From NCBI GenBank assembly GCA_041485905.1, contig JBGPKK010000005.1, positions 1-60,725 of the forward strand: DNA of 60,725 nt, read 5' to 3'. Position 1 is the first letter of the stretch. Each line of letters starts with the position of its first letter. The notes under the pieces are model-generated. The model made no database searches. It was not told where the DNA came from and was given only the letters and a program-made list of their open reading frames with translations. This stretch comes from Vicinamibacteria bacterium. Lineage in GTDB: Bacteria > Acidobacteriota > Vicinamibacteria > Vicinamibacterales > CAVVIG01. Made by a program: the position numbers and the translations under genes. This document shows, in pieces, positions 9,861 to 27,075 of the stretch.

Positions 9861-9990
9861 CCCCGGATCCTGTCCATTTCGCCTGCGGATTATGGCTCTG
9901 GAGCTGAGCCGTTCGCGCGGCGGCGTGCTACGATCGTGGTTTCGGAAGTCGCGGGAATTCGCGACCAGAATCTCAAGCACCCTGACACCC

Positions 9991-12945
9991 ATGGCGCACG
10001 ACTGGATTGCGGTGCGCGGCGCGCGCGTCCACAACCTGAAAAACATCGACGTCGATATCCCGCGGCACAAGCTTGTGGTCATCACGGGCCTGTCCGGCTC
10101 GGGCAAATCGTCGCTGGCCTTCGACACGATTTACGCCGAGGGGCAGCGCCGGTACGTCGAGTCGCTCTCGGCGTACGCGCGCCAGTTCCTCGAACAAATG
10201 GAGAAGCCCGACGTCGATTCGATCGACGGGCTCTCCCCGGCGATTTCGATCGAGCAGAAGACGACTGGGTCCAACCCAAGGTCCACGGTTGGGACCGTCA
10301 CGGAAATCTACGATTACCTCCGGCTGCTGTTTGCGAACATCGGCGTCCCGCACTGTCCCAACTGCGGCAAAGCCATCACGTCCCAGTCGCTCGAGCGTAT
10401 CGTCGACATGGTGATGCTCTATCCGCAGGACGAGCGCATCAACGTGCTGGCGCCGCTCGTGCGCGGCCGGAAGGGGGAGTTCAAGAAGGAGCTCGCCGGA
10501 CTGCGCGCGCGCGGGTTCACCAAGGCGCGCATCGACGGTCAGTTCCGCGCGCTCGAGGAGGACATCAAGCTGGATCGCCGCCGCAATCACACGATCGAGG
10601 TTGTCGTCGATCGCGTGATCGTGCGGGGAGGGGTCGAGCGCCGCTTGACCGAATCGATCGACATGGCGTTGAACCTCGCCGAAGATATCGTGGTCATCAA
10701 CTCGTTCGACGGCGGGGACCGGCTCTTCTCGCGAAAACTGGCGTGCGTCGACTGCGGGATCAGTATGCCAGAGATGACGCCGCGCGCCTTCTCGTTCAAC
10801 TCGCCGCACGGCGCCTGCGCCGACTGCCAGGGCCTTGGCGCGACGATCGATTTCGATCCGCAGCGGGTCGTGCCGGACGAATCGCGATCGCTCGCGGACG
10901 GCGCGATCGCGCCGTGGAACAGGGGCGATCGCCGGTTCGTTCGCGACGCGCTGCAGGGGTTGAGCCGCAACTTCGGCATCGACCTCACGGTGGCCTTCGG
11001 CAAGCTGCCGCGCAAGGCGCGCGAAGTGCTGCTCTTCGGAAGCGGCACCAGCAAGGGCGCGTTCGAAGGACTGATCCCGAACCTGCGGCGGCGGTACGAG
11101 GAGGGCAGTTGGGCGGATCAGGAGGAGCTCGAGGGGTTCCGATCGCTGCGGCCCTGCCCGACGTGCCGCGGCGAACGTCTGAAAACGCAGAGCCTGTCGG
11201 TGAAGGTCAAAGGCCGCACGATCGCCGACCACGTGAACCTGCCGATTTCCGAAGCTCAGAAGGTTGTCGAGAGCCTGCAGTTGACCGATCGGGAAGCGAT
11301 CATTGCCGAGCGCCTGCTCAAAGAGATTCACGATCGGCTGCGGTTCCTGAACGACGTCGGCGTCGGGTATCTGACACTCGGCCGGAGCGCGGCTACGCTA
11401 TCGGGCGGCGAGGGGCAGCGGATCCGGCTGGCCACGCAAATCGGCGCGAACCTCACCGGCGTGCTGTACGTCCTCGACGAGCCGTCGATCGGACTGCATC
11501 AACGCGACAACCGCAAGTTGCTGGCGACGCTGTCGCGGCTCCGCGACCTTGGCAATACGGTCATCGTCGTCGAGCACGATGAAGAGACGATCCGCACGGC
11601 CGATTACGTGATCGATCTCGGTCCCGGCGCCGGGGAGCACGGCGGAGAGGTGATCTTTCAGGGCACGCCGAAGGCGCTAATGGAAAGCGCCACCGAAGCG
11701 GAAAGGGCCACGGAAAAGGGGTCGGGAGTCGTTTCCAGCGGTGACGCCGGGGACGAATTTGGCTCAAAAACAGGCCTGAAAGTGGGTAGAACGGCCGTGG
11801 AAAAGGGGTCGGGAGTCGTAGAAAAGGGGTCAGGAATCCCCTTTTCTTTGACTGGCGCCTATCTCATCGGCGCGCGCTCGATCGCCACGCCGACCGTGCG
11901 GCGGCCGCAGCTGCGGGGCGACATCGTCATTCGCGGCGCTCGGGCCAACAATCTGAAGAACATCGACGTCCGGATCCCCCTCGGCGTGCTGACGGCCGTG
12001 ACGGGGGTCAGCGGATCGGGCAAATCGACACTCGTCAACGACATCCTCTATGCGTCGCTGGCGCGGACGCTGTACAGGGCCGCCGCCGAGCCCGGCGCGC
12101 ACGATCGCATCGAGGGCGTCGAACTGGTCGACAAGGTCATCGAGATCGATCAGTCGCCGATCGGCCGGACGCCGCGGTCCAATCCGGCGACGTATACGGG
12201 CCTCTTCACCTTCATCCGCGATTTGTTCGCGATGATGCCCGACGCCAAAGCGCGCGGCTTCAGGCCGGGCCGCTTCTCGTTCAACGTGAAAGGGGGGCGC
12301 TGCGAAGCGTGCCAGGGCGACGGCGTGATGGCGATCGAAATGCACTTCCTGCCCGACGTCTACGTCACCTGCGAGCAGTGCAAGGGCCGCCGGTACAACA
12401 CGGAGACGCTCGAGATCAGATACCGCGGGAAATCGATCGCCGAGGTCCTCGATCTCACCGTCGATCAGGCGCTGCCGCTGCTCGAGAACTTCCCGGCGAT
12501 CGCCAACAAGCTGCGCACGCTGCAGGACGTCGGACTCGGCTACATCGAACTCGGACAGTCGGCGACGACGCTGTCGGGTGGAGAGGCGCAGCGGGTCAAG
12601 CTGTCGAAAGAGCTGTCGAAGCGCGGCACCGGCCGGACGTTGTACATCCTCGATGAGCCGACCACCGGCCTGCACTTCGAAGACACGCGCAAGCTGCTCG
12701 ACGTGCTGCACAAACTGGTCGACCAAGGCAATACGATTGTCGTCATCGAGCACAACCTCGACGTCATCAAGGCGGCCGACTACCTCATCGATCTCGGACC
12801 TGAAGGCGGCGCCGCCGGCGGACGGATCGTGGGTGAGGGGACCCCCGAAGAAGTCGCTCGTAACGAGCAGTCGGCGACGGGTCGATTCCTGGCCGGCCTC
12901 CTCGCCGACGAGGCGGGACGTCCGATACGTTCCGCTGCGGTCTGA
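9991..12945 (+). CDS. uvrA: excinuclease ABC subunit A
   Basis: Two ABC halves ([20 protein letters not shown]) and Cys zinc modules. Start set at ATG 9991 ([18 protein letters not shown]). Confidence 0.97.
11686..11846. repeat. in-frame repeat/hairpin insertion inside uvrA
   Basis: GGAAAAGGGGTCGGGAGTCGT at 11712-11732 and again at 11799-11819. Hairpin GAAAAGGGG-TCAGGAAT-CCCCTTTTC at 11821-11846. Encodes [23 protein letters not shown]. Confidence 0.8.
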
Positions 12946-13156
12946 CGAACGGCCGTGGTAATATCCCCACACCTTGGCGGTTGGACCTGTGGCGCGAACA
13001 CCACAGAGCCTCCTGCTCAAAGGGCGAATCGCCTGTGTTGAGCGCGACTAAGATACTGTTCAGCCTACACGTTACAACGAACGCCTCCCCACGGGGCCGT
13101 CGGGCACTTGTTTTGCTGAGCCACGGTACGCTCACCCCAAGTTGCCCGTGAGGCTC

Positions 13157-14071
13157 ATGGACCCACAGCGCACTCTACGTCGTCAGATTTCCTGCGTCGG
13201 AATCGGTCTTCACTCCGGCAACAAAGTCACGCTGTCATTGAAGCCTGCGCCGTCCGATTTCGGCATCAGGTTTCGCCGTACCGACATCGGCCATCACGAA
13301 GTGCCCGCGACCGTCCACAACCTGGCCGGTATTCAGCTGGCGACGGGGCTGGCGCGCGAGAAAGTGTCGGTCGAGACGGTCGAGCACCTCCTGGCGGCGC
13401 TCGTCAGCACGGGCGTCGACAACGTGATCGTCGAGCTCAACTCGCCGGAAGTGCCGATCATGGACGGCAGCGCGGCGCCGTTCATCTACCTCATTCACGA
13501 GGCGGGCGTGAAACGGCTGCAGACGCCGCGCAAGTACCTGAAGATCATCCGATCGATTTCCATCTCGCGCGGCGACAAGCGCATCGCGCTGTACCCGTCG
13601 GATCACTTCAAGGTCACCTACAGCGTCAGCTACGATCATCCGCTGCTGCGTCATCAGTCCCGCACGCTGCGCATTACTGAAGACTCGTTCGTCGAGGACA
13701 TCGCGCCGGCGAGAACGTTCACGTTCCTGAAGGACGTCGAGATGCTGCGGCAGAACGGCCTCGCGCTCGGCGGCTCGCTCGAGAACGCCATCGTGCTCGG
13801 CGAGACCGGCGTCCTCAACAACCCGCTGCGGTTCGAAGACGAGTTCGTCCGCCACAAGATCCTCGACGCGATTGGCGACCTCGCCCTCGTCGGCTATCCC
13901 GTCATCGGCCACCTCGTCGCTCACCGCGCCGGCCACGCGCTCCACACGGAGTTCGCCGCGAAGATTCTCGAAGAGACGCACGCGTGGCGGCTCGTCGAGG
14001 CCCCGTTCGAACCGGCTTCGCTGCCCGTGGGCTTGCCGGCAAAGCACGCGGTGCCGCGCCTCGCTCACTAG
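13157..14071 (+). CDS. lpxC: UDP-3-O-acyl-GlcNAc deacetylase
   Basis: MDPQRTLRRQISCVGIGLHSGNKV N-terminus, HKILDAIGDLAL, HRAGHALH. Start at ATG 13157. Confidence 0.95.
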   Translation: MDPQRTLRRQISCVGIGLHSGNKVTLSLKPAPSDFGIRFRRTDIGHHEVPATVHNLAGIQLATGLAREKVSVETVEHLLAALVSTGVDNVIVELNSPEVPIMDGSAAPFIYLIHEAGVKRLQTPRKYLKIIRSISISRGDKRIALYPSDHFKVTYSVSYDHPLLRHQSRTLRITEDSFVEDIAPARTFTFLKDVEMLRQNGLALGGSLENAIVLGETGVLNNPLRFEDEFVRHKILDAIGDLALVGYPVIGHLVAHRAGHALHTEFAAKILEETHAWRLVEAPFEPASLPVGLPAKHAVPRLAH

Positions 14072-14196
14072 CCCATCCGTTCGGCATTCCGCGTTTTTGT
14101 CACCATCCTCGGGTCGTCTCTGATATCGTGCACTTTTGTGCGCTCGTCTCGCGACTGAGCGGTGCAGCAAGCCTGCCTGGCTTGAGGAGGAAACGG

Positions 14197-14724
14197 ATGC
14201 GACGTGTACTCTTGTTGCTCGTGGTGGCGGCACTGGCGGTGCCGGCGGCGGTCCTGGCCCAGGCCAAACCTGATTTCTCGGGCACCTGGACGCTCGACAC
14301 AGCGAAAAGCGATCCTCCGCCGCAGCGTGGTGGTGGCGGCGGAGCGCCGGGCGGTGGCGGAGCCCCGGGCGGCGGCGCTGCTCGCGCCGGTGGTGGAGGC
14401 GGCGGGCGCGGGGGCGGCCCTGTGACGATCATGATGATGCCGACCGGTCTGATGATCGGCGACGTCACCTACAAGCTTGATGGCTCGGAGCAGACCGTTC
14501 AGCTGCAGGGCCGCGGAGGTCCCCAGCCGGCCAAGGTCAAGGCACGGTGGGACGACAGCGGCAAGAAGCTTCTCATCGAGACGGTTCGAGAGGCCAACGG
14601 CAACACGATCACGACGAAGGAAGAGCGCTCGCTGAGCGCCGACGGCAAAGAGATGACCGTCGAGACGACCAACGTCACCCCGAACGGTGAGCAGAAGCGG
14701 AAGACGGTCTTCACCAAAGGCTAG
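14197..14724 (+). CDS. secreted hypothetical protein with Gly-rich tract
   Basis: Signal peptide MRRVLLLLVVAALAVPAAVLAQA. GAGGAGGA precedes ATG 14197. About 35 aa of G/A/P low complexity. No family recognised. Confidence 0.65.
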   Translation: MRRVLLLLVVAALAVPAAVLAQAKPDFSGTWTLDTAKSDPPPQRGGGGGAPGGGGAPGGGAARAGGGGGGRGGGPVTIMMMPTGLMIGDVTYKLDGSEQTVQLQGRGGPQPAKVKARWDDSGKKLLIETVREANGNTITTKEERSLSADGKEMTVETTNVTPNGEQKRKTVFTKG

Positions 14725-25973: not shown

Positions 25974-26001
25974 GAGTCGCGCCGGCCGCGGAGGCGCGCT
26001 C

Positions 26002-27075
26002 ATGACTGAGGGTCCGACACGCGACGCCACGCCTTTTATCGAGTTCATTGCGCTCTCCCTGCTCCCGATTCCAGTCTGGCGGGACGTCGGCGAACGGCTT
26101 CGGGCCGGTGACGCGCCCGCGGCGGCACTGGGTCGAGTGCTTGCGGAGCGGTGGCCGCTCGATCACCACAAGCGTGGGGACCTGATGTCCCGGGCGGCGG
26201 CGGCGCTCGAACAAGGGATGGACCGTGGGCTCACGCCGATCGTGTGGAGCGACACGGCGTATCCGCCGTCGCTTGCGGCGATCATCGATCCGCCGCCGGT
26301 CCTGTGGACGCGGGGATCGCCGGCGGCGCTGCAGCAGCCGGCCGTGGCGATCGTGGGATCGCGGGCGGCGTCGCCCTACGCGCTCGACGTAGCCGACCGT
26401 CTCGCCGCGGATCTCGCCGCGCGCGGCCTGACGATCGTGAGCGGGCTGGCGCGGGGCGTCGATTCCGCCGCGCATCGCGGCGCCCTGTCGGCCGGAGGAT
26501 CCACCATCGCCGTGCTCGGATGCGGCGCCGACATCGTCTATCCGCCGGAGCACGCGAGGCTGGCGCGCGAGATCGAGCCGCAGGGATTGATCGTGAGCGA
26601 GCTGGTGCCTGGCACGATCCCGTTCCCGCGCTTTTTTCCGCAGCGCAATCGGATTATCAGCGGCTTGTCGCGCGCCGTCGTCATTGTCGAAGCGGGGGAG
26701 CGCAGCGGATCCCTGATTACCGCGCGATGCGCCCTCGAGCAGGGCCGCGACGTGCTGGCGGTGCCGGGCAACGTGCTGAGCGAACGTAACCGAGGCGGCC
26801 ACGCGCTGCTGCGCGACGGTGCAAAGCTTGTGGAGACCGCGGACGATATCTTGGAGGAGCTCAACGGGGTCGGGAGCCGTCCGCATGCTGAGGGAAGGCT
26901 TCCGCCGCCAGCGGACCCGCTGCTGGCGTTGTTGCCGCCGGGAGAAGCGTGCGATCTCGACGGGATTTCGGACCGATCGGGTCTGAGTCCCTCGCGCCTT
27001 CTACCGCGTTTATTCGAACTGGAACTGCAGGGTCTGGTCCGGCGGGCGGGCGCCGGCCGGTTCATCCGGGTTTGA
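26002..27075 (+). CDS. dprA: DNA-processing protein DprA/Smf
   Basis: IVGSRAASPYA, SGLARGVDSAAHRGAL, GCGADIVYPPEH, FPQRNRIISGLS. Start ATG 26002. Confidence 0.93.
   Translation: MTEGPTRDATPFIEFIALSLLPIPVWRDVGERLRAGDAPAAALGRVLAERWPLDHHKRGDLMSRAAAALEQGMDRGLTPIVWSDTAYPPSLAAIIDPPPVLWTRGSPAALQQPAVAIVGSRAASPYALDVADRLAADLAARGLTIVSGLARGVDSAAHRGALSAGGSTIAVLGCGADIVYPPEHARLAREIEPQGLIVSELVPGTIPFPRFFPQRNRIISGLSRAVVIVEAGERSGSLITARCALEQGRDVLAVPGNVLSERNRGGHALLRDGAKLVETADDILEELNGVGSRPHAEGRLPPPADPLLALLPPGEACDLDGISDRSGLSPSRLLPRLFELELQGLVRRAGAGRFIRV

Follow-up and report, generated by a model that had tools for sequence, protein, structure and literature searches.

A probable in-frame copy of a transposase-linked palindromic repeat in the UvrA interdomain linker of a Vicinamibacteria bacterium

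What are about 50 additional residues doing between the two ATPase halves of a UvrA protein? The question is raised by a 60,725-nucleotide stretch of DNA from a Vicinamibacteria bacterium (contig JBGPKK010000005.1, assembly GCA_041485905.1; hereafter the window), where a repeat-bearing segment lies in frame within uvrA. An earlier note on this DNA had taken the segment for a small palindromic mobile repeat in a permissive linker and had named Rickettsia palindromic elements (RPEs) as its precedent. We assign a probability of about 0.78 to the reading that the segment is an in-frame and translated copy, later rearranged, of a small non-autonomous palindromic repeat whose arm is the terminal inverted repeat (TIR) of a Y1 transposase gene. 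The earlier proposal stands in that the arm is dispersed, palindromic, and transposase-linked, while mobility in this genome is something we infer. The RPE precedent falls away: on sequence criteria the family is of the repetitive extragenic palindromic (REP)/TIR type, tied to a transposase (TIRYT) resembling the REP-associated tyrosine transposases (RAYTs), and it is unrelated in sequence to RPEs.

Relative to solved UvrA structures (phmmer against 2r6f and 3ux8), 51 codons are inserted at 11686-11838 (+ strand) between the end of ATP-binding domain I (..GTPKALME) and the start of domain II (PFSLTGAYL). Query residues 1-95 align with residues 506-600 of the Geobacillus UvrA chain (2r6f), and query residues 147-250 align with residues 602-705. 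Because chain residues 600 and 602 of 2r6f and 3ux8 flank the segment, 51 residues replace a single one, with the reading frame kept. The 21-mer GGAAAAGGGGTCGGGAGTCGT is exact at 11712-11732 and 11799-11819; it has no further match with up to three mismatches in the window, and two matches were obtained in 0 of 100 shuffles. This direct repeat extends to 30 nt at 90% identity (11703-11732 and 11790-11819, spaced 87 nt apart), and a third, degenerate copy lies in tandem at 11817-11837 with a 21-nt period. A hairpin of GAAAAGGGG-TCAGGAAT-CCCCTTTTC at 11821-11846, with a perfect 9-bp stem and an 8-nt loop, is unique in the window (expected 0.00). GC content is 0.52-0.60 across 11700-11850 and 0.63-0.74 on the flanks. 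The earlier note had described the direct repeat, the hairpin, the AT-richer composition, and a frame-preserving insert of about 50 residues, and in all four respects it was accurate.

The segment can be resolved into arms of a repeat family with the consensus GAAAAGGGGTCGGGAGTCGTTTTC and the general form arm-loop-inverted arm. Arm copy 1 (GAAAAGGGGTCGGGAGTCGTTTCC, 11713-11736, + strand) agrees with the family consensus at 23 of 24 positions, reads EKGSGVVS in frame 1, and contains the same 20-mer as the dispersed repeat. It is followed by a spacer or loop of 63 nt (11737-11799, + strand), the last 10 nt of which fall within the 30-nt direct repeat. Arm copy 2 (11800-11819, + strand), also within the 30-nt repeat, repeats the first 20 nt of copy 1 without a mismatch, and arm copy 3 (11821-11846, + strand), which reads EKGSGIPFS, is a degenerate left arm (11821-11837) fused to a 9-nt right-arm remnant. 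The window element has three left arms, and its right arm is reduced to those 9 nt (CCCCTTTTC). Since the spacer resembles those of other UvrA inserts (P0064, SSSGPGEAGTGGLQ; P0092, ..ETGLKV..; shared features SSGxxG.. and TGLK), the simplest reading is that the original uvrA copy would have been an arm-spacer-arm element like P0064 or P0092. Slippage would later have remodelled it through a partial 87-nt duplication and a 21-nt tandem duplication, the latter overwriting the inner right arm, so that most of the right arm was lost.

The arm is found far beyond uvrA. An exact scan for the 20-mer GAAAMGGGGTCGGGAGTCGT in one reference genome per species returned at least 117 stretches, often arranged as inverted pairs, which agrees with the earlier expectation that further genomic copies exist. 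Among the matches listed, they lie in about 60 genomes with up to seven stretches per genome; several genomes have four to seven, and in some of these multi-stretch genomes the stretches are on megabase contigs. The hosts among these matches are Planctomycetota (Pirellulaceae, Gemmataceae, Isosphaeraceae, Phycisphaerae), Acidobacteriota including three Vicinamibacterales MAGs (metagenome-assembled genomes) with arm copies elsewhere (L059, L066, L106), Nitrospira, Delta-, Beta-, and Alphaproteobacteria, Verrucomicrobia, and Binatia. In genomic context the arm reads GAAAAGGGGTCGGGAGTCGTTT[TC], and the arm labelled GAAAMGGGGWCRGG is of the same family. An inverted partner within 170 nt was present at 56 sites among the matches listed, forming palindromes that range from 48 to 156 nt (modes, 48 and 83-86 nt), and 57 arms were solo. 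Dispersed elements are mostly between genes. The arm has no stop codon in any of its six frames (EKGSGVVF, KRGRESF, KGVGSRF, ENDSRPLF, KTTPDPF, and KRLPTPF). Arms begin with GAAAAGGGG and lack a GTAG or CGTC head. The core GGGGWSAS is fitted exactly by GGGGTCAG (window 11826-11833) and by GGGGACAG (L003). A full-text literature search for the arm sequence GGGGTCGGGAGTCG gave no match.

Two features of the dispersed copies were observed in addition. Tandem partial duplication of a few flank bases together with the outer arm is common (L016, L039, L044, L097, L102, L105, L118; for example GGCAAGAAAAGGGGTCGGA GGCAAGAAAAGGGGTCGGGAGTCG), and the event at window 11796-11837 is similar; this suggests recurrent slippage or re-cleavage at the outer end of the arm. 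Full palindromes are often extended outward by copy-specific inverted bases (L037, L049, L088, L112, L048, L096, L118), as in CTGCGCT|GAAAAGG..CCTTTTC|AGCGCAG, which is the opposite of a direct target-site duplication.

The arm is linked to a transposase gene in genomes other than that of the window. In 15 of 15 full-length Y1 genes, a forward arm lies 49-97 nt upstream of the start, and 12 of the 15 also have an inverted arm beyond the stop, at a distance of 1-145 nt and mostly of 1-7 nt. The gene encodes a protein of about 225 residues (MPRRxR..GGxxYHVLNRxVGR..YCLMPNHWHLLLWP..GTGPVYQGRFKSFP..YVERNALRA) that scores 48-50 bits with Pfam Y1_Tnp (PF01797; cut-off 23) and has no DnaA_C or helix-turn-helix (HTH) domain called by Pfam. 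Its tyrosine motif is YVERNA in most copies and YVERNP in L008 (the class 2 RAYT motif is Y---NP). We conclude that the linked protein is a predicted Y1/HUH transposase (IS200-like, RAYT-like, TIRYT). The protein family is very large (7993 of 8000 scored candidates at E <= 1e-20); most named matches are from Nitrospira and one is from a Terriglobia (Acidobacteriota) MAG. Arm-bracketed genes were found in Planctomycetota and Nitrospira/Nitrospirales genomes, and the arm alone is spread over many more phyla. Two Nitrospira MAGs (L110, L122) have a truncated second Y1 gene beside the intact one. In L110 (- strand, Y1 ORFs, or open reading frames, at 698 and 992), the truncation is made by an arm of the gene's own repeat, and in L122 (two copies) the truncated copy ends in unrelated sequence (..RWIIQVKGVGSRFLTV..).

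Comparison of the same linker in related proteins shows that it has been occupied repeatedly. The relatives are the 120 closest UvrA proteins (81-93% identity), and those with source names are from Acidobacteriota MAGs. From FQGTP to SLTGAYL their linkers span 20-70 residues. Many have an empty linker of 20-22 residues (e.g., RELMESETSLTGAYL), and the solved structures also lack the segment, as the earlier note had anticipated for orthologues. A repeat without other copies, in a segment conserved among distant UvrA proteins, is therefore not what was found. Long linkers share recurring peptides (EKG[ST]GVV.., EKGPYPFS, ..TPVPFS, and ..TTPDPVS), which are translated inverted DNA repeats, EKG being GAAAAGGGG and PFS being CCCTTTTC. 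The uvrA linker of locus L004 contains a perfect in-frame palindrome with 24-bp arms (GAAACGGGGTCGGGAGTCGTTTCG...CGAAACGACTCCCGACCCCGTTTC). Those of L002 and L003 have 14-bp arms (GAAAAGGGGACGGG...CCCGTCCCCTTTTC) with 56 and 128 nt between them, and one or two short hairpins like GAAAAGGGGCCGTACCCCTTTTC are present in L005, L127, and L128. Other relatives retain remnants (ETAPFS, EKTSDPFS, and EKGSGAPGPRSES). Differences between linker variants come in pairs: A to C is accompanied by T to G (GAAACG..CGTTTC in L004, compared with GAAAAG..CTTTTC), and T to A by A to T (GGGGACGGG..CCCGTCCCC in L002 and L003 against GGGGTCGGG..CCCGACCCC); therefore, the inverted-repeat character is kept.

In a neighbor-joining tree of the UvrA proteins from which the linker was excluded, sequences with occupied and with empty linkers intermingle. 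P0068, with a perfect palindrome, stands beside the empty P0055, and P0102 stands beside the empty P0090; at the DNA level, the 24-bp palindrome of L004 has a sister (L125) with an empty site. Among the window, L004, and L006, only about 65% of third codon positions in the flanks agree, yet the arm is identical at 21-22 of 22 positions. This conservation could be due to copies having arrived independently and recently from a conserved pool, to gene conversion, or to a constraint acting on the arm. In L004 and L127, the two arms may have been inserted separately, with native linker residues between them, which is suggestive only.

About 8-9 of 122 arm sites could be shown to be in frame inside real proteins, most with Pfam domains on both sides. 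Within the window, a decayed in-frame copy was found in dprA (coding sequence approximately 25999-27075) at 26861-26913 (+ strand). It reads NGVGSRPHAEGRLPPPA, and it has a left arm TCAACGGGGTCGGGAGCCGT at 26861-26880 that matches at 17 of 20 positions (0.02 such matches expected per window) and a right-arm relic GGAAGGCTTCCGCCGCCAGCG. The copy is located exactly between the Pfam domains DNA_processg_A (ending at residue 279) and DprA_WH (starting at residue 295). DprA relatives carry fresher copies in the same linker (GVGSRFPQEGSGPRLPTP, ..KRLPTPF; sites L129 903-1007 and L130 3013-3141), and the L129 dprA DNA contains the arms ..GGGGAGTCGTTTTCC..CACGACTCCCGACCCCC. The DNA-repair helicase Lhr has in-frame copies in two phyla, at two different positions: in a Vicinamibacterales MAG (L066 3376-3437) a full element separates the DEAD and Helicase_C domains, and in a Gemmataceae MAG (L100 2829-2849) there is an in-frame arm. 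The frames used are 1 and 2 in uvrA, 3 and 3 in dprA, and 3 and 2 in Lhr, giving EKGSGVV/TTPDPFS in uvrA and KGVGSRF/KRLPTPF in dprA. Because the reading frames differ between genes, the shared entity is the DNA and not the peptide.

Other in-frame copies lie within a single Pfam domain match (an amidase, L014, and a CN_hydrolase, L053), between the two halves of a glycosyltransferase (L079), between the Fer2 and linker domains of RACo (L118), in an Fe-S flavoprotein (L085), in an integrase (L022), and in an FtsK-like protein with a Pfam domain on one side only (L068). A polyketide synthase N-terminus has a full element in L037 and a half element in L101. DNA-related proteins make up four of about nine in-frame cases, a sample that is too small and partly ascertained, and no enrichment is claimed from it. 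A match in an HtrA-like protease (L056, ETGSGVV) was rejected as probable chance. It lies at the start of the trypsin-like domain (Trypsin_2 163-307) and is followed by ..LTNNHV.., in a region holding the family's native G-S-G motif. Several long ORFs over other arm sites (L024, L062, L112, L048, L041, L059, L120, L010, L065, L099, L097, L023, and L064) were not counted as coding, as Pfam support is missing on one or both sides.

A mechanism can be proposed by analogy with IS200/IS605 and REP/REPIN elements, in which the Y1 transposase would move copies in trans as single-stranded hairpins. Insertions into coding regions would survive only where the frame is kept and a length divisible by three is tolerated, that is, in flexible interdomain linkers, of which the UvrA domain I-II junction is one. 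Such insertions would persist as extra linker and then decay or rearrange by slippage. By the same analogy, the insert would most likely have little effect on UvrA function, and the RNA hairpin is most likely a by-product of the palindrome.

Several observations weigh against the interpretation of the segment as a captured transposase-linked repeat. The window copy lacks a proper right arm, and neutrality for UvrA function is an assumption made by analogy. The main arm variant, GGGGTCGG, is one base off the GGGGWSAS core, at position 7, and the transposase scores 71 bits with NCBIfam REP_Tyr_transpos (NF047646), below the cut-off of 80. No direct duplication was seen on comparing filled with empty sites (L004/L125 and L127/L126), and no target-site signature was found. 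Arm conservation at synonymous sites could result from selection on nucleic-acid structure. Finally, the 60 kb window contains no transposase gene and no other intact element, and in 183 kb of UvrA-clade sequence every hairpin of this type is in the uvrA linker; because of this, activity in this genome is a point that we infer, and recombination could have brought the copies in, or they could be old relics.

Other explanations of the insert can be weighed on the same evidence. Repeats can misassemble, and in one sediment metagenome run (X2) the contig breaks at 11702-11715, so that two overlapping contigs cover the insert. However, three independent runs span the whole insert with no differences (Logan contigs of X1 cover 11463-12045 and those of X3 cover 11463-12034, each with 0 differences), and locus L001 of another assembly, with a UvrA 93% identical, has the same insert architecture. 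The insert is real DNA on these two grounds, and an assembly artefact or chimera is extremely improbable. Growth of the linker from native low-complexity sequence by replication slippage or tandem duplication, without any mobile element, would suit the direct repeats of 87-nt and 21-nt period and the hypervariable linker length among relatives. The duplicated unit is nevertheless identical to a cross-phylum repeat that brackets a transposase gene, and perfect inverted repeats occur at the same place in other lineages; slippage accounts for the rearrangement of the element and not for its origin, which makes a purely local origin very unlikely. A single ancient insertion in the ancestor of the clade, inherited vertically or through uvrA recombination and made patchy by decay and precise deletions with no recent transposition, deserves more consideration. 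The confinement of these hairpins to the uvrA linker in the clade sequence is what it would predict, as are the remnant linkers and the likeness of spacers from distant branches (KTGLKV in the window, ETGLKV in P0092). It fits less well with the perfect palindrome of L004 beside its empty-site sister, with arms that match the cross-phylum consensus despite about 35% synonymous divergence in the flanks, and with the copies elsewhere in Vicinamibacterales, and we regard it as possible but unlikely.

The hairpin could also be kept for a function, as a terminator or attenuator, as a translational pause between the two ABC halves, or as a longer protein tether, in which case the element would be domesticated and not a passenger. 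The insert region folds better than shuffled sequence (z = -2.95), and GGGG..CCCC followed by TTTTCTTT is flagged as terminator-like (site 11826-11840 with CTTTTCTTTG). Between the window and L001, whose uvrA DNA is 92.3% identical, 14 differences fall in the 161-nt segment and none in the arms, which are conserved far above synonymous sites in the clade; the paired changes in the arms of L004 and of L002/L003 and the recurrent occupation of one linker are likewise what selection would give. Against this, the linker is empty or holds a decayed remnant in many close relatives, the long right arm is gone from the window copy, and the same element is found in unrelated genes and mostly in intergenic DNA. 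Paired changes would be expected in any case for variants of a transposon whose enzyme needs the hairpin. The intrinsic-terminator reading was not favored, as such sites are no more numerous than chance (2 in the region and 2.1 expected from shuffles). A scan of 11400-12100 with Rfam at a permissive threshold gave noise only and no family match. Retention for function is accordingly improbable in our judgment. The interpretation as a rearranged copy of a Y1-linked repeat fits the observations best. A further idea, that the family is no random passenger, is doubtful. In this acidobacterial clade it would repeatedly occupy interdomain linkers of repair and recombination proteins (UvrA, DprA, Lhr) with nucleotide-perfect arms beside synonymous sites diverged by about 35%, through targeted or recurrent insertion or through selection on the hairpin or peptide. 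If this were true, the enzymes acting on the hairpin intermediates of a single-strand transposon might, for example, be tuned by the transposon itself, and the repair-gene bias of other REP families noted by Di Nocera et al. (PMC3733652) would be extended.

The uvrA coding sequence (9991-12945, + strand, from the ORF list) encodes Pfam domains UvrA_inter, UvrA_DNA-bind, and ABC_tran; the interaction and DNA-binding domains and both ABC ATPase halves are intact on either side of the insert, and the flanks align to 2r6f. The frame is open upstream to 9892 (9892-9990, 33 codons); relatives start at MAHDW, which corresponds to 9991, and the longer start is probably not used. An AlphaFold model of the full protein from a 62-sequence alignment was too poor to use (mean predicted local distance difference test score, pLDDT, of 44; the insert was coil at pLDDT 22-24). 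Joints that skip the insert, as expected of empty-site alleles, were sought in four runs and gave only cross-matches between the two ABC halves. In the run X4, depth on window 11400-12150 was zero over most of the insert and 5-6 on 11712-11737 and 11790-11815; therefore, the arm alone is present on other contigs of that sediment metagenome. The gene lpxC lies 3' of uvrA in the window (13142-14071) and in every relative locus with called, annotated downstream genes (L001-L006, L125-L128). In L007 and L126, the contig ends within the gene that follows uvrA, and this gene has no Pfam entry. The genes upstream (an amino-acid permease, an SGL/NHL-repeat protein, and HNH) recur in several loci and are less constant than lpxC. 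An ORF at 13984-14724 (+ strand), known from the ORF list only, begins like a signal peptide (MRRVLLLLVVAALAVPAAVLAQ) and continues with a long Gly/Pro/Ala-rich run (GGGGGAPGGGGAPGGG..GGGGGGRGGG).

The locus provides a checkable example of a palindromic repeat of single-strand-transposon type that has probably been made part of an essential repair protein without breaking it. For annotation, linker peptides of the forms EKGSGVV...TTPDPFS, KGVGSRF...KRLPTPF, and EKGxxPFS in Acidobacteria, Planctomycetes, and Nitrospira should be treated as translated repeat DNA and not as protein motifs. That the arm is nearly identical in several phyla suggests a Y1 transposase system widespread among environmental bacteria and hardly described so far. 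The UvrA, DprA, and Lhr linkers add independent cases to an old and unexplained observation on repair genes, in a sample too small to test for bias.

Among known systems, RPEs share with the present repeat a palindromic structure and in-frame placement in ORFs at tolerated sites, where they are translated as extra peptide. RPE-1 is 100-150 bp long and is restricted to Rickettsia, and we know of no transposase linked to it. The sequences are unrelated; here the host is an acidobacterium, the arm family occurs in Planctomycetota, Nitrospira, and others, no Rfam match was obtained for the region scanned, and the arms are 24 nt long and linked to a Y1 transposase. Miniature inverted-repeat transposable elements (MITEs) of DDE type are likewise short and non-autonomous and have terminal inverted repeats in common with an autonomous unit. 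In contrast to those, the enzyme here is a predicted single-strand Y1 transposase, no direct target-site duplication was seen at the sites compared, and the flanks of dispersed arm copies tend to inverted and not direct repeats.

The closest parallels are with REP-type systems. Like REP/REPIN-RAYT elements, the family consists of short palindromic units with a single linked Y1 transposase, and head-to-head pairs of these units, forming hairpins, are common. The genomes among the matches listed hold 56 REPIN-like doublets, and L004 has perfect 24-bp arms, while the window has only a 9-bp stem. The family differs from them in sequence and in the RAYT model score, which is below cut-off, and its arm lacks the GTAG or CGTC tetranucleotide head that marks REP super-families (PMC3733652).

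TIRtrons are RAYT-like TIRYT genes flanked by inverted repeats, many with a GGGGWSAS core; the repeats are moderately repeated, in dimers or clusters, and Acidobacteria are prominent hosts (Di Nocera, De Gregorio & Rocco, 2013, PMC3733652). TIRYT corresponds to subclass 2.1 of TnpA-REP (Quentin et al., 2018, PMC6006769), and a literature search for the term returned only these two papers. The present family agrees in having a Y1/HUH gene bracketed by inverted repeats at fixed short distances (15 loci in other genomes), a GGGG[AT][CG] core, and Acidobacteria and Planctomycetes among its hosts. Its repeats are also dispersed as singles, dimers, and clusters, while the genome of the window shows only the uvrA and decayed dprA copies. 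It differs in its main arm (GGGGTCGG) and in a protein of about 225 residues without Pfam DnaA_C or HTH. Many of the REPs reported inside genes lie in genes for replication and repair, among them the uvrA genes of Thioalkalivibrio and Opitutus terrae; in frame they encode 7-50 amino acids inside DNA-repair genes, and insertions in flexible linkers were argued to be possibly neutral, with the repair-gene bias published without explanation (PMC3733652). According to the supplement of that paper, the canonical UvrA of O. terrae (Oter_3168) carries inserts at residues 224-239 and 440-462 (PMC3733652), away from the domain I-II linker occupied here. The window is thus a clear but fairly ordinary case, since such repeats had already been reported inside uvrA. 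What appears to go beyond the available portions of the published accounts is a near-identical 20-mer arm across many phyla with in-frame copies, the repeated occupation of this UvrA junction, and the parallel cases in DprA and Lhr.

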